Positions 49-6,149 of a stretch of DNA of 64,000 bases are shown here, one piece after another. The position numbers were made by a program, and so were the translations under genes. The DNA is from Coprobacillus sp. CAG:605. GTDB taxonomy: Bacteria; Bacillota_I; Bacilli_A; RF39; UBA660. Within the stretch, counting starts at the first letter, position 1, and every line of letters starts with the position of its first letter. Location: positions 19,063 to 83,062 of the forward strand of contig HF998225.1 of NCBI GenBank assembly GCA_000433255.1, given 5' to 3'. The notes below the pieces were generated by a model, which made no database searches, was not told the origin of the DNA, and worked only from the letters and a program-made list of their open reading frames with translations.

Positions 49-1029
49 TTAACCTTTTTTATTTTTTGATTTTTTCTTCTTAACTACTGGTTCGCTCTTC
101 ATTTTTGGCAACTCAGTATCATCGCTCAACTTAACCTCATAGATATCATCATTTATCGTCGTATCATTATTTAACTTATCTAAAATCTTATTCATATTTA
201 AATCTTTTCTTACATAAGTTTCTTCTTCCTCTTTAGCACCCTTATATAAGCTATCTAAAGCATTCTTCTTTAATACTGTTATCTCATCACTAACATCAGT
301 TTTAATTGGTAAATAATTATTATCTTTACCATTATTTTTATTTTCTAACCTATCCTTAATCTTCTTCTTTAATTCTTCCTGTTCTTTCTTATCTAAGACT
401 AATTCTTTCTTAGCATTAATTGTTTTATTAACTTTCTTCTTAGTCTTATCTAAATTAAATATCTTTAAAACATCATATATTACAATACCTAATGAAGGAA
501 TTAATATTAAGAACAACCAACCACCAGATTTAAGTATTAAAAATTGAATTCTTCCTAACTGTGGTATCTTAAACGCAACCTTACCTAGTACTTTATCAGC
601 ATCAACATAGGCATCATCTGGTACTGGGTTATTATCTCCCTTAGTTCTAAATTTAAGACCACTATCAGTCTCAATAACCTGTTTAATTCTATGTGTAATA
701 GTTTCACCACTAGTTAAAGAACTTGAAGAAACAAAAGTAATAACATCGCCCTCCTTTAACTTTGAAGGATCATCTACTTTAACATCAAATACTACATCAT
801 ATACTTTAATTGTTGGTTCCATCGAACCAGAAATAATAGTATACAATGCAAAAGCTGGTTTATATTTTTCCCCCTTATTAGCATACAACTGCGCCGCTAT
901 TACATAGTACACTAAAAATAAAGCAATAATAGCTAAAATTGCAAAAATACTCCAAGAAATAACATTGGATATAATATGAAATACTACATTTTTAGAATTA
1001 ATTTCTTTTTTCACACTATTATGCCCCAA
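49..1029 (-). CDS. sipW: SipW-type (ER/archaeal-type, S26B) signal peptidase I with a long charged C-terminal tail
   Basis: An N-terminal TM is followed by the SGSMEPT Ser box, THRI (His in place of the Lys of P-type SPases) and a KGDNNPVPD box. A second TM and an approx 135-aa Lys/Glu/Asp-rich tail follow. The track start is TTG; GTG at codon 6 is an alternative start. Confidence 0.8.
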   Translation of the reverse strand: MGHNSVKKEINSKNVVFHIISNVISWSIFAILAIIALFLVYYVIAAQLYANKGEKYKPAFALYTIISGSMEPTIKVYDVVFDVKVDDPSKLKEGDVITFVSSSSLTSGETITHRIKQVIETDSGLKFRTKGDNNPVPDDAYVDADKVLGKVAFKIPQLGRIQFLILKSGGWLFLILIPSLGIVIYDVLKIFNLDKTKKKVNKTINAKKELVLDKKEQEELKKKIKDRLENKNNGKDNNYLPIKTDVSDEITVLKKNALDSLYKGAKEEEETYVRKDLNMNKILDKLNNDTTINDDIYEVKLSDDTELPKMKSEPVVKKKKSKNKKG

Positions 1030-1206
1030 TCTTTATACTACTATAATTATAAAATATCTTACTTTTATTTTCAATATTAATTGTACAAAAGAACACCATT
1101 TTACAAGTATCTTCATATTATTAAGTTTTTAAATAATTACTATATATGTATTAATTTTTGCATATTTTGTGTTTTTTTCACAAATTTGCAATAAATATAG
1201 CTAAAT

Positions 1207-1235
1207 ATTAAAAAAGAACACTTTTTCAAGCATTC
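1207..1235 (-). terminator. Putative rho-independent terminator after the TSP3-repeat gene
   Basis: The minus-strand RNA GAAUGCUU-GAAA-AAGUGUUC forms 8 bp (2 G.U) and is followed by UUUUUUAAUAUUU. It starts at the stop codon. Confidence 0.5.
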
Positions 1236-2644
1236 TAATTTGTTTCTAACTTAACATTAGCACTAAAATTCTTATTTTGGTCAACATCTTGATTATTACC
1301 ACTTTCAATAAAACGATAATTAATAACATATGTATACGTACTATTAGCCTCAATTACTTCATTGGCAATAATACTCTCATCTTGATAAGGAAGATTTCTA
1401 CCACTTAATATAACCTTACCATTTCTTGTTATTTCAAACTCTAAGTTATTAGCTTCACTAAATGTATTTACAACATTTATCCAATACAAGCTATATCGAA
1501 CACTAACTGGGTTATTATTATTAACTTGAAAACTTTGAGTTCCACTCCAACCAGGTACTATATTCGAAGTATTTAAAGTCTTAACATCCTGTAATGAAAT
1601 GTAATAAGTATTTTTATCATTATCTAAATTAGCATCACAATTCAAATCACACTTACCATCACCATCTAAATCAACATTTTTATCAGCAACTCCATCGCCA
1701 TCAGTATCTATGTTCTTATCTGGTTTACCATCACCATTAGTATCACAGTTTAAATCACATTTACCATCACCATTAGTATCTTGATTAGTCAAATCCTTAT
1801 CTGGTTTACCATCTCCATTAGTATCACAATTAAAATCACAAATACCATCATCATCAACATCAATATTCAAATCTGGAATTCCATCTTTATTAGTATCAAT
1901 ATTAGTATTAGGTTTACCATCTCCATCAGTATCACAATTTAAATTACACTTACCATCATTATCTGTATCAATATTTAAGTCTGGCTTTCTATCTCCATCA
2001 GTATCAATATTCGTATTTGCTTTACCATCTCCATCAGTATCACAATTCAAGTTACAAACATCACTACCCTTATCATAACAATTTAAATCACAAATATTAT
2101 CACCATCAAGATCAATATTCTTATCCGGAATTCTATCTTTATCTGTATCAATATTAATATCTGGTTTTCCATCACCATCAACATCAATATTTAAATCCGT
2201 TTTACCATCTCCATCTAAATCAATATTATAATCAGGTCTACCATCTTTATTAGAATCACAATTCAAATCACACTTACCATCTCCATTAGTATCTTGATTA
2301 ACTAAGTTAAAATCAGGCTTACCATCTCCATTAGTATCAAGATTAAATGTAGGAATCTTATCATTAAAATAATCAATATTTAAGTAAGGTTTATTACTCC
2401 CCCACTTAGAACAGTTAATTTCACAAACTCCATCACCATTCAAATCAATATTCAAATCAGCTTTGCCATCCCCATCAGTATCTATATTAGTCATCAAATT
2501 AATTTGATAAACATTATATCCCACACAACTACTAAGTAATAACATAAGTAAAATAAGAATAAGAATTAAATACTTCTTCTTTTTACTTTCTTTTTCTTCA
2601 TCATAACTATTATTTTGATTATTATTTAAAACCTCTTTATTCAT
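1235..2644 (-). CDS. Membrane/lipid-anchored protein with more than 20 thrombospondin-type-3-like Ca-binding repeats and a C-terminal TasA-like beta-sandwich module
   Basis: The N-terminus has a KKKK-hydrophobic stretch ending in LSSC, a lipobox-like motif. About 23 D-x-D-G-D-G-K-x-D-x-N-[IC]-D repeats are interleaved with CDLNC Cys pairs. The last approx 130 aa align by eye with ORF 2940-3452 (NVVNTF block). Its start overlaps the upstream ORF by 8 nt. Confidence 0.75.
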   Translation of the reverse strand: MNKEVLNNNQNNSYDEEKESKKKKYLILILILLMLLLSSCVGYNVYQINLMTNIDTDGDGKADLNIDLNGDGVCEINCSKWGSNKPYLNIDYFNDKIPTFNLDTNGDGKPDFNLVNQDTNGDGKCDLNCDSNKDGRPDYNIDLDGDGKTDLNIDVDGDGKPDINIDTDKDRIPDKNIDLDGDNICDLNCYDKGSDVCNLNCDTDGDGKANTNIDTDGDRKPDLNIDTDNDGKCNLNCDTDGDGKPNTNIDTNKDGIPDLNIDVDDDGICDFNCDTNGDGKPDKDLTNQDTNGDGKCDLNCDTNGDGKPDKNIDTDGDGVADKNVDLDGDGKCDLNCDANLDNDKNTYYISLQDVKTLNTSNIVPGWSGTQSFQVNNNNPVSVRYSLYWINVVNTFSEANNLEFEITRNGKVILSGRNLPYQDESIIANEVIEANSTYTYVINYRFIESGNNQDVDQNKNFSANVKLETN

Positions 2645-2885
2645 TTATATCCACCTCATTAACTTTAACATTAACTATATCTTTTACATTATTTTCTTGA
2701 GCCCTTAATTTATTATAATTTTTTAATGTAACATAAGTTGTAATAGTCGAAAAAATCAAAGCCAAAAAGAACAAAGAAATAATTAAATTTAATTTTAAGT
2801 CGTATTCTTTTTCATCTTTTTTTACTAACTTGCCTATTTGTTCATCAAACTTTTTCTTTATTTCTAACGACTCCAATTCATTCAT
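2637..2885 (-). CDS. Small bitopic membrane protein (82 aa), unknown function
   Basis: An AAGGAG RBS lies 8 nt before the ATG. There is a single central TM (LIISLFFLALIFSTITTYV). The ORF is translationally coupled to the TSP3-repeat gene. Confidence 0.6.
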   Translation of the reverse strand: MNELESLEIKKKFDEQIGKLVKKDEKEYDLKLNLIISLFFLALIFSTITTYVTLKNYNKLRAQENNVKDIVNVKVNEVDINE

Positions 2886-2939
2886 ACCCTAGACTCCTTA
2901 CTATACTAATAGTATCACAAAGTAATCTAAAAAACAACA

Positions 2940-3452
2940 TTATTCCAACGTTCTTACTACTAGAGTTGCATCAAAATTACTCATATTATCAATTAATTCA
3001 TTATAATCATTTACATAAATGGTTAGAACATAAGTAACCTCCATATGAGGTGCAATTGTAAAAGTATCTACCGAGTATCCTGATGCGCTTGGTAACATAT
3101 AGGAAGTGCTTATAGCCTCATCATTTCTTGTTAAATTATACATCAACGTAGCCTGATTATTAAAAGTATTAACTACATTTTCCATTGATATATCATATTT
3201 CATCTCTAAGTTAGAATCATTACTTATTTTAACAGTCTTTACAAAAGTATCTCCCGCCGTTATATTAGCTATCTTTATATCCTTACCACCACTATAAGAT
3301 ACATTTAAATTAGCCGATATAATATTTGTCGTACTATTAACACCATCATTAACAATATCATTTGTAAAAAAAGAATAACTAATTCCAACTAATGTCATTG
3401 TTAAAGTAAGTATTATTGTCCCAACTATAATTACCATTTTATTCTTTTCCAT
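2940..3452 (-). CDS. TasA/camelysin-like secreted protein, minor paralogue, with SipW-cognate-type signal peptide
   Basis: The start was moved to MEKNKMVII, which has a GGAAGG RBS. The signal peptide ends in GISYSFFTNDI, matching the A-[YF]-F-[ST] motif class of TasA/CalY. The mature domain is homologous by eye to the C-terminus of ORF 1235-2644. Confidence 0.65.
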   Translation of the reverse strand: MEKNKMVIIVGTIILTLTMTLVGISYSFFTNDIVNDGVNSTTNIISANLNVSYSGGKDIKIANITAGDTFVKTVKISNDSNLEMKYDISMENVVNTFNNQATLMYNLTRNDEAISTSYMLPSASGYSVDTFTIAPHMEVTYVLTIYVNDYNELIDNMSNFDATLVVRTLE

Positions 3453-3577
3453 ATTCAAACCTTCCATCATAATTAATCTTATCATGCTTTGTTCTCTTGT
3501 TCAATTACTTTTAGTATTTTTTGGGCTTCATAGCCCACATCATATATAACACTATCTCAGTAATATCAAATTTTCAT

Positions 3578-3611
3578 CAAAAGAAAAAGCCTAACATTAT
3601 ATCGTTAGACT
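3578..3611 (-). terminator. Rho-independent terminator after TasA-like paralogue A
   Basis: The minus RNA AGUCUAAC-GAUAUAAU-GUUAGGCU forms 8 bp and is followed by UUUUUCUUUUG. Confidence 0.75.
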
Positions 3612-3629
3612 CCAAGTTAATTTTAATAA

Positions 3630-4214
3630 CTATTTTAATGCTGTACCAGCAGCACCAACAATTATAGTTCCACCAAATGATTTACCTTGTAAACTATTTT
3701 GTGCTTTATTAGTTTCTGCAAAATCAACTGTTAATTTATAATAGTTAGTTCCATTAGCTTTTACTGTTAAAGCAGCGGCTTCAGGAATAGCTGTAGTTGA
3801 AGCAGCATTAGCAGCTGGTAATTGCGCAGCAGTAACTAATTTAGTAGTACAAGTAGCATCTTCAGCACCAGTACAAGAATATAGTGTGTAAGTAATATCT
3901 TTTGCATCAGCAGCATCAGCAATAGTGTTAGTTACGCCTTTGTTCCAAACAAGATTAAATTTAGTATCATTTTTTGAACTATTAGCAACAGTAAAACGCA
4001 TAGCAGCACTTTTACCTGGTACCCAGTTTGCAACACTAATTGATGATGTTTGAGCATAAGTAACTGCTAAAGTATCAGTAGAAACTGTAACATTATTAGC
4101 AGATTGGTTACCACTAACAGTTGCCGTAAAGTATGCAAATGTTGTTCCTACAACAGCAGTTAATAAAGTTGCAACAGCGATCACACTTAAAAAGATAACA
4201 TTCTTCTTTTCCAT
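3630..4214 (-). CDS. TasA/camelysin-like secreted protein, major paralogue A (Ala/Thr-rich)
   Basis: The start is set at MEKKNVIFLS, 8 nt after a GGAGGA RBS. The track's extra 13 codons are the 5' UTR. The signal peptide ends in GTTFAYFTATV. The mature part is a beta-rich Ala/Thr/Asn domain with two Cys (YSCTGAEDATC). Confidence 0.7.
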   Translation of the reverse strand: MEKKNVIFLSVIAVATLLTAVVGTTFAYFTATVSGNQSANNVTVSTDTLAVTYAQTSSISVANWVPGKSAAMRFTVANSSKNDTKFNLVWNKGVTNTIADAADAKDITYTLYSCTGAEDATCTTKLVTAAQLPAANAASTTAIPEAAALTVKANGTNYYKLTVDFAETNKAQNSLQGKSFGGTIIVGAAGTALK

Positions 4215-4273
4215 AATTCTTTCATATCCTCCTCTATGATTACATATTATCAAATTATGAATTTAAATTCAAG
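4108..4273. repeat. Copy 1 of a 166-bp duplicated block (promoter, 5' UTR and signal-peptide codons)
   Basis: This copy is about 95% identical by eye to 4853-5018. Identity collapses at the signal-peptide/mature-protein junction. Confidence 0.9.
4244..4272 (-). promoter_or_regulatory. Sigma-A-type promoter of paralogue A
   Basis: The minus strand reads TTGAAT-17 nt-TAATAT, followed by an approx 30-nt leader carrying GGAGGA. Confidence 0.6.
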
Positions 4274-4311
4274 TGTTTTCGTCTTATTTGTAAATTTTAA
4301 AATTTACTTGA

Positions 4312-4342
4312 CAAAAAAAGACTAGTTAACAATAACTAGACT
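4312..4342 (-). terminator. Rho-independent terminator after TasA-like paralogue B
   Basis: A 10-position stem with one mismatch (AGUCUAGUUA / UAACUAGUCU) has loop UUGU and is followed by U7. Confidence 0.7.
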
Positions 4343-4356
4343 TCCAAAATTTTCAA

Positions 4357-4959
4357 TTAGTTTAAATGTCCTGATTGAACAGCAGCACTTACAACAACAG
4401 TTCCACCAAAAGTTTGTCCTTGAAGGGCATCTTGAGCAGCAGTTTTGTTATCAGTAAATACAACTTGAACTTTATAATATGCAGTAGCACCAGCAGCTAA
4501 TGTTAAAGTTTCAGCAGTTGTAATATCACCATCAGCATTTGGTAAAACACTTGATGCATGAACTACAATATTGCAAGTAGTATAAGTTTCATCACAAGCA
4601 GAAATAGTATATTGAATATCAGTATCAACTCCACCTTTGCCATTAGTAGCTAAAGATTCAGCAGTCCAAGATTTGTTAACATCTTGCCAAGCTAATTTGT
4701 AATCAACAGCAGATTGTCCACTATTTTTTACATTAAATGTCATAGCAGGAATTGCTTGACCAGGAACTAAATTAGCAATACTTACTTTATCACCTTGGGT
4801 ATAAACGACACTCATGTCAGCAGTAGTAACATTAACATTTTTAGAAGTTTCGTTACCAGTAACAGTTGCAGTAAAATATGCAAATGTTGTTCCTACAACA
4901 GCAGTTAATAAAGTCGCAACAGCGATTACACTTAAAAAGATAACATTTTTCTTTTCCAT
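4357..4959 (-). CDS. TasA/camelysin-like secreted protein, major paralogue B
   Basis: It has the same MEKKNVIFLSVIAVATLLTAVVGTTFAYFTATV signal peptide as paralogue A. The mature part is about 40% identical to A by eye and has two Cys (SACDETYTTC). Confidence 0.7.
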   Translation of the reverse strand: MEKKNVIFLSVIAVATLLTAVVGTTFAYFTATVTGNETSKNVNVTTADMSVVYTQGDKVSIANLVPGQAIPAMTFNVKNSGQSAVDYKLAWQDVNKSWTAESLATNGKGGVDTDIQYTISACDETYTTCNIVVHASSVLPNADGDITTAETLTLAAGATAYYKVQVVFTDNKTAAQDALQGQTFGGTVVVSAAVQSGHLN

Positions 4960-5018
4960 AATTCTTTCATATCCTCCTCTATGATTACATATTATCAAAT
5001 TATAAAATTCATTTCAAG
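4853..5018. repeat. Copy 2 of the 166-bp duplicated block
   Basis: See 4108-4273. Confidence 0.9.
4989..5017 (-). promoter_or_regulatory. Sigma-A-type promoter of paralogue B
   Basis: The minus strand reads TTGAAA-17 nt-TAATAT, in the position homologous to the paralogue A promoter. Confidence 0.6.
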
Positions 5019-5144
5019 CCCTTTTCGTAAATTTTAAAAATAAAAAATTTCACTTTTACCAAATTTTCTGCATTCTTTACATTTACTAGACAAAGTAATT
5101 ATTTATATAATTCATTACGTAATATAATATATTGGAGGTGCAAA

Positions 5145-5981
5145 ATGATATATCCAATAAGATATATAAAAATAACACAATATCCACACAAGAATAACGA
5201 TTTATCAATTGATTTTGGTAAAGAAAAGAATGTTTCTAATACCCCAATTCTTGCTTGTGATGATGGCATAGTAAAAAAAATTGAATATCAAAAAACAGGT
5301 GGCAATGTAATATTTATCGACTTCAATTCTGGTTATCGTGCTTGTTATGGTCATTTAAAAAACTACATAGTTAAACAAAACCAAAAGGTTAAAAAAGGTC
5401 AAATAATTGGTTATATGGGTCAAACCGGAATTACTACTGGACCTCATCTTCACTTTGGCTTATATGACATAACACCAAACATAAATTATGGTCCAGCTAA
5501 ATATGACCCATTAAAAATATTAACAGTTGCACAAGACCAAATAGTAGATAAAGAAACTAAAGAAAAATATTATTTAAAATATGAAGATACTAATAATATA
5601 AAAAAAGAACTATATGTTTATAATGTTGATGAAGAAGGCCTCGTTGTAAGAAACAAACCAAATGGTTTTAAAACTGGAGAATTACTCCAAGTTGGCACCA
5701 AAGTATTAGAGTTAGAACGTTCAAATAACTGGACTAAAATAAATCAAAACAAATGGGTTTATAATAAATTTCTTACACCCAATAAACCAGAATTTTACAT
5801 TGTAACAACACCAAATAATAAAACCCTAAATGTTAGAAATAAGCCTAGCCTTAACTCCCAAATCATTAAAACAATAAAAAATAACACTCACGTCTCTATT
5901 TATAAAAAAATTAATTCCTGGGTTTGTATAAGCCCTACTAAAAATCATTGGATAGCTAAAAATTTCATCAAAAAAGCTTAA
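5145..5981 (+). CDS. M23 metallopeptidase with two C-terminal SH3b-like domains and no signal peptide
   Basis: A GGAGGTG RBS precedes the start. The HxxxD (HKNND) and HxH (GPHLHF) M23 motifs are present. Two approx 60-aa repeats of the form V-RN-KP...W-K/C-I resemble SH3b domains. No hydrophobic N-terminus is present. Confidence 0.75.
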   Translation: MIYPIRYIKITQYPHKNNDLSIDFGKEKNVSNTPILACDDGIVKKIEYQKTGGNVIFIDFNSGYRACYGHLKNYIVKQNQKVKKGQIIGYMGQTGITTGPHLHFGLYDITPNINYGPAKYDPLKILTVAQDQIVDKETKEKYYLKYEDTNNIKKELYVYNVDEEGLVVRNKPNGFKTGELLQVGTKVLELERSNNWTKINQNKWVYNKFLTPNKPEFYIVTTPNNKTLNVRNKPSLNSQIIKTIKNNTHVSIYKKINSWVCISPTKNHWIAKNFIKKA

Positions 5982-6075: not shown

Positions 6076-6149
6076 GGGGCTTTAGCCAAGTGGTAAGGCA
6101 CGGGACTGCAACTCCCCCATCACCAGTTCAAATCTGGTAGGCCCCTCCA
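6076..6149 (+). tRNA. tRNA-Cys (anticodon GCA), CCA encoded
   Basis: The cloverleaf was folded by eye. The acceptor stem is GGGGCTT/AGGCCCC, the T-arm is ACCAG-TTCAAAT-CTGGT, and the anticodon loop is CTGCAAC. The U73 discriminator is typical of tRNA-Cys, and a 3' CCA is encoded. Confidence 0.9.

Follow-up and report, generated by a model that had tools for sequence, protein, structure and literature searches.

A putative TasA-type fibre locus with a candidate membrane-tethered stalk protein in Coprobacillus sp. CAG:605

How does a TasA-type fibre start, how does it stop, and what attaches it to the cell? These points are unsettled even in Bacillus and Clostridium, and each of the accessory proteins identified to date (TapA, CapP, BsaB/BsaC) is confined to its own lineage and unrelated to the others. 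The question is raised by a stretch of 64,000 nucleotides of Coprobacillus sp. CAG:605 (contig HF998225.1, positions 19,063 to 83,062; hereafter the window). Near its beginning, six co-directional genes on the minus strand encode two related TasA-like proteins (majors A and B), a minor TasA-like paralogue, a bitopic membrane protein of 82 residues, a 469-residue repeat protein that we call the stalk protein, and a signal peptidase of the SipW type. These genes were first described in an account made from the letters of the DNA without database searches (the sequence-only reading), and all six are confirmed as open reading frames (ORFs; Table 1). We lean towards the view that they encode a surface fibre or pilus of the TasA superfamily with its own SipW-type peptidase; donor-strand exchange would build the fibre on the outer side of the membrane, and a membrane-tethered stalk would terminate it. 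The locus is a conserved variant within a type of fibre system that is already known, and as such is unsurprising in principle; it does not represent a new kind of machine.

The core of the argument is that one protein fold occurs four times in this locus. Majors A and B are 48% identical in pairwise comparison (expect value, E, 1e-48), and both exceed the Pfam gathering threshold of PF12389 (Peptidase_M73; A 28.3 bits, B 34.6 bits, threshold 22.5), below which the minor paralogue remains (16.2 bits). NCBI names the 94%-identical orthologue of B 'TasA family protein'. Pairwise, the minor paralogue resembles major B (E 4e-7) and residues 355-468 of the stalk protein (25% identity over 114 residues, E 2e-6). 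The latter resemblance had been aligned by eye in the sequence-only reading; it is real, and at the level of profiles it lies far beyond chance. A hidden Markov model (HMM) of the major family, built on 47 proteins, matches the minor paralogue at E 9e-25 and the stalk protein at E 1e-20, and one built on the stalk C-terminal domain of 23 homologues matches the minor paralogue at E 8e-19. When the C-domain family is aligned to the major family with hhalign, the probability is 99.8% (E 5.6e-29, 122 columns), and the P-G strand motif that had been noticed in the majors and in the C-domain falls in register.

Structure prediction points the same way. The AlphaFold2 (AF2) model of major B has a predicted local distance difference test score (pLDDT) of 79.5, with a confident core and with residues 28-47 disordered in the monomer, as expected of a donor strand; the model of the stalk C-domain reaches a pLDDT of 89.5. 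Foldseek searches of the PDB placed the TasA fibre (8aur_A) first for major B (E 1.5e-3, query TM-score, TMq, 0.49) and second for the C-domain (E 3e-4, TMq 0.57). Further top matches of these models were donor-strand pilins: CfaB, the Sulfolobus thread (Saci_0406), FimG and the pilin domain of PapG. When major B, the repeat region and the profiles of the majors and of the C-domain were searched against PDB sequences, no match was significant, the best being AbpX at E 0.37 with the major profile, so that the link to TasA rests on Pfam, hhalign and Foldseek. Together, these comparisons confirm that majors A and B, the minor paralogue and the stalk C-terminal domain share one TasA-like fold and ancestry, with structural scores that are moderate, and the four copies of one fold counted in the sequence-only reading are borne out.

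The number of such paralogues is not fixed within the species. At L009:6992-7522, a GTDB species representative whose DNA is ~94-96% identical encodes one more TasA-like paralogue, of 176 residues, in the interval that separates the genes of major B and the minor one; the window lacks it (~3486-3629).

The peptidase fits a locus of this family. It matches the archaeal/ER-type model TIGR02228 at 100.6 bits (cutoff 51.85), in agreement with the SipW-type assignment made from the letters. The equivalog model of Bacillus SipW, NF046067, scores it at 101.6 bits, below the cutoff of 190; the enzyme is predicted to work like SipW, yet it is no strict orthologue. Aligned with its relatives, the peptidase shows invariant Ser69 (in SGSM), His113 (in THR) and Asp132/138, and in line with published work on SipW we take them to be the catalytic residues of a Ser-His, not a Ser-Lys, enzyme. 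The gene starts at the TTG at 1029 or at ~1014, the latter being the start called in the 98%-identical gene of the metagenome contig L007. The second transmembrane (TM) helix is followed by a tail of ~130 residues rich in Lys, Glu and Asp (residues 196-326, window 49-441). Lengths among relatives range from 178 to 524 residues, and the C-terminus of B. subtilis SipW reportedly has a second function. As for its putative substrates, the N-termini quoted in the sequence-only reading, TTFAYFTATV and ISYSFFTNDI, are real, and the mature N-terminus F29-T30-A31 is invariant across the 47 major homologues. All four TasA-like modules lie within 4 kb of the peptidase gene and on the same strand.

Table 1. 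Features of the locus, with window coordinates, strand and the evidence or remarks on each.
Feature	Position	Strand	Evidence or remarks
Putative shaft subunit A (major A), 200 residues, TasA/camelysin family	4357..4959	-	SipW-type signal ...VVGTTFA|YFTATV; PF12389; ribosome-binding site (RBS) and ATG
Putative shaft subunit B (major B), 194 residues, TasA/camelysin family	3630..4214	-	PF12389; AF2 and Foldseek
Minor TasA-like paralogue, 170 residues	2940..3452	-	Signal ...LVGISYS|FFTNDI; HMMs of major family and C-domain
82-residue bitopic protein	2637..2885	-	~33-residue cytoplasmic amphipathic N-region, one TM helix, ~30-residue outside tail ending IVNVKVNE
Stalk protein, 469 residues	1235..2644	-	N-region, TM helix, lipobox-like LSSC, ~24 Asp-rich repeats, C-terminal TasA-like domain
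Stalk N-terminus	2525..2644	-	24-residue charged cytoplasmic region, TM residues 25-39, Cys40 of LSSC
Asp/Asn-rich repeat array	1610..2488	-	~N-[IC]-D-x-[DN]-x-D-G-x-x-D-x; DNA period of 36 nucleotides; composition
Stalk C-terminal TasA-like beta-sandwich	1238..1609	-	hhalign 99.8%; AF2; Foldseek
Archaeal/ER-type (SipW-like) signal peptidase I	49..1029	-	Two TM helices, ~130-residue charged C-terminal tail; TIGR02228
5' block of major A	4821..5050	-	Promoter-like TTGAAA-17-TAATAT (5017-4989), RBS and first ~46 codons
Second copy of duplicated 5' block	4076..4305	-	Upstream of and into major B; promoter-like site 4356-4329 adjacent
Terminator-like hairpin and T-run	3586..3613	-	Immediately 3' of major B
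Promoter-like site, 11/12 matches	1046..1074	-	Upstream of peptidase gene; consensus match only

What sets the locus apart is the stalk protein. Its array of ~24 units of 12 residues consists of 26% Asp and 15% Asn, contains 16 Cys as 8 CxxxC pairs, and has an isoelectric point of 4.05. The TSP_3 repeats suspected in the sequence-only reading did not hold up, since neither TSP_3 nor any other calcium repeat or Pfam family matches the region at E<=10. The whole protein has no direct match in Pfam. In NCBIfam it weakly matches SdrC, and its Sdr/Clf matches as a group stay below 60 bits against cutoffs of 999-2500; we discarded them as compositional. A homologue of the archaeal protein TafF has been mis-annotated as SdrC (PMC11821415). 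The lipobox that had been read in the stalk protein is a candidate one: LSSC at residues 37-40 fits the pattern [LVI][ASTVI][GAS]C, with a 24-residue n-region that is atypically long. Lipobox-like L-x-[SG]-C motifs recur in three related lineages (LIGC in L011/L012, ITSC in L018, LISC in L024), and such a motif is absent from the 97 database relatives that we classified.

These relatives, named only 'hypothetical protein' in their sources, form a large family. The search gave 1240 matches, a number inflated by the repeats, and 106 of the 120 best end in the TasA-like domain. In the common plan, a charged cytoplasmic N-region (median 37 residues, range 16-101) precedes a single TM helix, whose outer end bears a short motif; a spacer and the TasA-like domain follow. 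The spacer may be missing (the 255-residue protein of L019), be cadherin-like (PF12733 in L015) or extend to 62 repeats (the 1298-residue protein of L052). One sub-group (P0034, P0047, P0054, P0058, P0061, P0007, P0081) has a conserved cytoplasmic domain of ~95 residues (...LPxSLxVxKxGxKLIFxF...) before the TM helix. This domain has no Pfam match, and its conservation argues that the N-terminus of these proteins is more than a disposable signal peptide. The segment that follows the TM helix of the stalk protein was compared with a profile built on the N-terminal extension of the majors, and scored no better than 300 shuffled versions. In L029 and L054, proteins of 230-238 residues are encoded upstream of the peptidase; by eye they resemble anchors devoid of a stalk, but they were rejected for want of detectable homology.

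The genetic organisation of related loci ties these components together. We scanned GTDB species representatives with the peptidase alignment and obtained 80 loci. The locus of the window is also found, at ~94-97% nucleotide identity, in the species representative L009 and in L007; both contain the complete six-gene set, and L008 contains all gene types. The co-occurrence in related genomes on which the sequence-only reading had staked its case is thus observed. The relatives are metagenome-assembled genomes (MAGs) from gut and rumen labelled Bacilli, Tenericutes, Erysipelotrichaceae, Ca. Ventrenecus or Ca. Onthousia; for the closest named ones (Ca. Ventrenecus), the taxonomy resolved no further than 'Bacteria incertae sedis'. 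The order of one to four TasA-like genes, stalk gene and peptidase gene is seen in ten loci (L009, L011, L012, L016, L017, L018, L026, L032, L038, L044), and the stalk gene lies immediately upstream of the peptidase gene in L009-L013, L016-L019, L026, L027, L032, L038, L044, L052 and L057. In L033, L036 and L037, two small subunits accompany the peptidase and the stalk gene is a few kb off. For 60 peptidase loci, the upstream context extends to 4 kb or more, and 34 of these have a TasA-like gene, a stalk gene or both within 6 kb. In L008 (9324-13962), which is a more distant relative, an arginine deiminase operon (arginine deiminase, ornithine carbamoyltransferase, carbamate kinase and a DcuC-type transporter) separates a pair of TasA-like genes from the genes of a 78-residue protein, the stalk and the peptidase, which makes the latter three the tighter unit.

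The third component of this unit corresponds to the 82-residue protein of the window, whose possible part as the accessory partner the sequence-only reading overlooked. The stop of its ORF overlaps the start of the stalk gene by 8 nucleotides, and this place immediately before the stalk gene is conserved in the window's sub-clade, as seen in L006, L007, L008, L009, L011, L012 and L018. Its family amounts to 7 clusters of 80-83 residues in 1.84 billion representatives. In every member, an amphipathic N-region in the cytoplasm is followed by a single TM helix and by a short tail that ends in a strand of alternating I/V (IVNVKVNE, IINVKVIE, VIKVKVEE), and the member in L008 carries a canonical GTIFAY motif. 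In a set of 120 sequences, the family HMM matches many stalk proteins over their N-terminal ~65 residues, at E 1e-6 to 1e-4. The protein may be a split-off N-terminal module of the stalk, with the caveat that the composition of the TM helix adds to these scores. The strongest non-self match of the search, P0242 (1524 residues, 15 stretches), is repetitive and apparently unrelated, and was discarded.

From the established homology, architecture and synteny, we infer the cleavage site, polymerisation, anchoring, lipidation and calcium binding in the following scheme. Sec would export the two majors and the minor paralogue, and the peptidase would then cleave them after ...F-A|Y-F-T. The cut would free the conserved N-terminal strand (YFTATV...), which would then insert into the next subunit. 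A and B would form the shaft; each has its own copy of a promoter-like site, and behind B comes a terminator-like hairpin. The minor paralogue would serve as tip, adaptor or initiator. The stalk protein would be kept at the membrane, in the window's lineage probably as a lipoprotein through Cys40, and its acidic, probably Ca2+-binding repeats of 12 residues would cross the wall and carry the acceptor domain. This C-domain would take the donor strand of the last shaft subunit, ending and anchoring the fibre, as has been proposed for TafF. The 82-residue protein, translationally coupled to the stalk gene, would be an accessory of the stalk and peptidase module.

The scheme has precedents in known systems. 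Insertion of an N-terminal strand into the next subunit polymerises TasA, BsaA, AbpA, AbpX and the archaeal Tafi pilins (PMC9674648, PMC10151520, PMC11580942, PMC9245690, PMC12337348), and in the model for BsaA, a new monomer held in the membrane accepts the free strand of the fibre before SipW cuts it (PMC11580942). The tapA-sipW-tasA operon of B. subtilis shares with our locus a dedicated archaeal-type peptidase beside a jelly-roll subunit of the TasA family, a polymer built on N-terminal donor strands, and an aromatic P2' residue. It differs in several respects: our locus has a minor paralogue beside two of the shaft type, an acidic repeat stalk and a TM/lipid anchor are attached to one of its TasA-like domains, and the peptidase, below the equivalog cutoff of Bacillus SipW, has a charged tail of 130 residues. 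Our locus also has no homologue of TapA. NCBIfam holds a TapA/YqxM model, and none of the six proteins matches a TapA-type family in Pfam or NCBIfam at E<=1. The missing TapA emphasised in the sequence-only reading is therefore a fact for these proteins, but an ordinary one: absence is normal outside B. subtilis (PMC10151520, PMC13082335), and TapA is not conserved even within Bacillus (PMC10151520).

A parallel in logic comes from Archaea. The haloarchaeal Tafi filament has the same four roles (TafC tip, TafE adaptor, TafA/E shaft, TafF anchor), with TafD as the peptidase (PMC11821415, PMC12337348), and resembles our locus in its paralogous pilin-fold proteins, its dedicated peptidase and its membrane protein with a pilin-like domain. 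In the proposal for this membrane protein, TafF, the pilin-like domain takes up the last strand, which ends the filament and anchors it (PMC11821415). The stalk protein has the architecture that would make it TafF-like, i.e., a pilin-fold domain with a membrane anchor, encoded with pilins and a peptidase, though by analogy of design only. The systems differ in that Tafi is archaeal and exported by twin-arginine translocation, and in their topology, which is reversed: in TafF the pilin-like domain is N-terminal and the TM helices are C-terminal.

The bacterial systems offer other solutions. C. perfringens sipW-bsaA-bsaB-bsaC likewise combines SipW with several TasA-family paralogues per operon and forms membrane-associated oligomers (PMC11580942), but BsaC is a von Willebrand factor A protein, anchoring is ascribed to an uncleaved signal peptide or the LPXTG-type BsaB, and there is no stalk fusion. 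In the sipW-tasA-capP-calY locus of B. cereus, two camelysin-type subunits heteropolymerise in the absence of TapA, and an accessory protein, CapP, is itself kept at the cell wall by its repeat region (PMC13082335); CapP differs in having a DUF4047 helical domain and QKKV/AEE repeats instead of a TasA-like domain with Asp-rich repeats. AbpX fibrils share with our locus the TasA superfamily, an adjacent TIGR02228 peptidase, acidic proteins and a putative role of calcium in assembly (10.64898/2026.01.04.697558). The calcium of AbpX lies where strand and groove meet in a subunit with a single domain, whereas in our locus a repeat spacer of its own would bind it, and the match of the major profile to AbpX is marginal. 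Bacterial loci of the AbpX type often encode separate SLH or LPXTG anchors (10.64898/2026.01.04.697558). The TasA-like domain joined to a membrane anchor by an Asp-rich repeat stalk, together with the 82-residue partner, appears to be undescribed, as our literature searches turned up no account of it. To that extent the novelty claimed in the sequence-only reading stands. It does not extend to the rest of the combination: SipW operons with several TasA/BsaA paralogues had already been noted as candidate heteropolymers (PMC11580942), and an anchor of the TafF type had already been proposed for archaeal pili (PMC11821415).

The scheme has consequences beyond this genome. The stalk family provides a concrete and testable candidate for a basal terminator in bacteria, mirroring the archaeal TafF proposal. 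The locus also points to abundant unstudied fibres in uncultured Bacilli from the gut or rumen of humans, chickens, rabbits and ruminants, which could matter in gut adhesion and biofilm formation. The idea can be tested by heterologous expression, with no need to culture the organism.

Several observations weigh against an anchored fibre. The fold matches are modest overall (TMq 0.49-0.57, E 3e-4 to 1.5e-3). The SipW-cognate signals announced in the sequence-only reading are recognisable, in that the G-T-T-F-A-Y-F-T motif of the majors is visibly of the TIGR04088 class, but the model itself gives A 16.5 and B 14.3 bits against a cutoff of 19 and matches neither the minor paralogue nor the stalk protein. 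That the repeats probably bind Ca2+ is suggested by the resemblance to DxDxDG-like motifs only. The window has no other lipobox protein, and a neighbouring substrate-binding protein in L007 is without a canonical lipobox. In 26 of the 60 peptidase loci introduced above, no TasA-like or stalk gene is detectable nearby, and in L010, L013, L027, L052 and L057 the stalk and peptidase genes have no small TasA-like gene within 6 kb. Finally, a SipW-type motif (GATFAY, GATYSY, VSYST) directly follows the TM helix in at least 50 of the 97 classified stalk-family members, and G-x-A-T-[FY]-like motifs are found in many others. The sequence-only reading overlooked that most of the family carries this motif and not a lipobox, and many members may accordingly be cleaved and released, not anchored. 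This leads to the main rival, which we judge to be rather less likely: the stalk protein would itself be a SipW-cleaved, released and polymerising subunit, with a donor strand after the TM helix, an acceptor in the C-domain and a long acidic spacer between them. With the same modest likelihood, the cleaved proteins would link head-to-tail, on their own or mixed with the majors, to form either an extensible matrix that responds to calcium or an adhesive segment at the distal end. Besides the motif and the five loci just listed, the alignment of the majors' N-terminal signal region with stalk N-termini in phmmer speaks for it, and calcium-driven donor-strand polymers are known in the TasA superfamily (AbpX, cannulae; 10.64898/2026.01.04.697558, PMC12518558). 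It fits less well with the window's own lineage, where the lipobox-like LSSC replaces the motif and the change is kept in four lineages, with the two dedicated shaft-type subunits encoded in the window, or with long conserved cytoplasmic N-regions (to ~100 residues), which are unexpected in a disposable signal peptide.

Two further readings bear on the anchored fibre, one denying it and one refining it. That no fibre is formed seems very improbable to us: the TasA-like proteins would then be monomeric secreted or surface proteins (a camelysin-type protease or adhesin) and the stalk an independent wall-spanning protein. The name of the Pfam family, Peptidase_M73, and the 26 peptidase loci devoid of detectable TasA-like neighbours would suit this, but major B has no histidine and major A has two, leaving no HExxH-type site, and the protease assignment of CalY is itself considered a likely misidentification (PMC11580942). 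Moreover, the best fold match is the TasA fibre, along with other donor-strand pilins, the N-terminus of the mature protein shows conservation across homologues and disorder in the AF2 model, and every characterised member of the group polymerises (TasA, CalY, BsaA, AbpA, AbpX, TafA/E). The refinement concerns the 82-residue protein, which might, though we think this unlikely, be a functional analogue of TapA whose outside tail supplies a strand once the protein is in the membrane and, possibly, cut by SipW. Just as doubtfully, this strand would cap or initiate the first subunit, or fill the groove of the stalk C-domain until a shaft strand displaces it. The conserved place of the gene directly upstream of, and overlapping, the stalk gene, the alternating I/V strand at the end of the tail and the canonical GTIFAY of the L008 member speak for such a role, as does B. 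subtilis TapA, of which residues 1-57 (a 43-residue signal peptide and a secreted 14-residue N-terminal peptide) are enough for biofilm formation (PMC10151520). Against it, comparison with the N-terminal extension profile of the majors gives the tails no better scores than 300 shuffled versions, the protein family has few members and is limited to one sub-clade, and its likeness to stalk N-termini is partly driven by the TM helix. We also regard as speculative a broader version of the anchored fibre, in which the stalk family would be unrecognised bipartite subunits, each with a membrane-proximal strand, a spacer of adjustable length (0-62 repeats that would bind calcium, or cadherin-like domains), and a distal acceptor. 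Here such a subunit would be a lipid-anchored pilus base, and its 82-residue partner a split-off, strand-only chaperone or cap, as a minimal analogue of TapA. If this version is true, gut Bacilli with a wall would possess a sortase-independent pilus, similar to those of the chaperone-usher pathway, with a defined initiator, shaft and terminator.

Shine-Dalgarno-like sequences (GGAGG, AAGGAG, GAGGTGGA or GGAAGG) precede the ATG of majors A and B, the minor paralogue, the 82-residue protein and the stalk protein. The 5' block of 230 nucleotides is 87% identical between its copies at major A and major B, in comparison with only ~48% identity in the rest of the two proteins. This suggests either gene conversion or a strong constraint on the signal peptide and the N-terminal strand.

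The surroundings are those of an ordinary chromosomal region of a Bacilli genome of ~27% GC content, with genes of ribosomal proteins and glycolysis, ftsEX and parAB. Neighbours encoding bPH_3, LysM and a 534-residue membrane protein are syntenic across genera (L005, L007, L008), and in view of this conserved chromosomal synteny we take the locus to be core and reject an origin as a mobile island. Divergent from major A, a gene at 5145-5981 (plus strand) encodes an M23 peptidase with two SH3_3 domains and occupies the same position in L007; it may suggest local remodelling of the wall for the passage of a fibre. Two Bacilli MAGs (L001:4423-10730, L003:4434-10735) encode the stalk and peptidase directly after ftsE-ftsX, a PcsB-like M23 peptidase and a lipoprotein-like gene of 229-235 residues, with no small TasA-like gene near either pair. 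In L020 (7011-10705), a homologous peptidase follows genes that by eye resemble those of a CpaF-type ATPase and of TadB/TadC, and not TasA-like ones. Within the window, the 534-residue protein with multiple TM helices (6211-7815, minus strand) has a weak match to DUF4352 (18.7 bits, below the cutoff) and is syntenic in L007, L008 and L022. A tRNA-Cys gene lies just downstream of the M23 peptidase gene (6076-6149, plus strand), and a transfer-messenger RNA gene at 10347-10701 (minus strand) encodes the tag peptide DETYSFNTPVFA, which ends in FA where AA is common.

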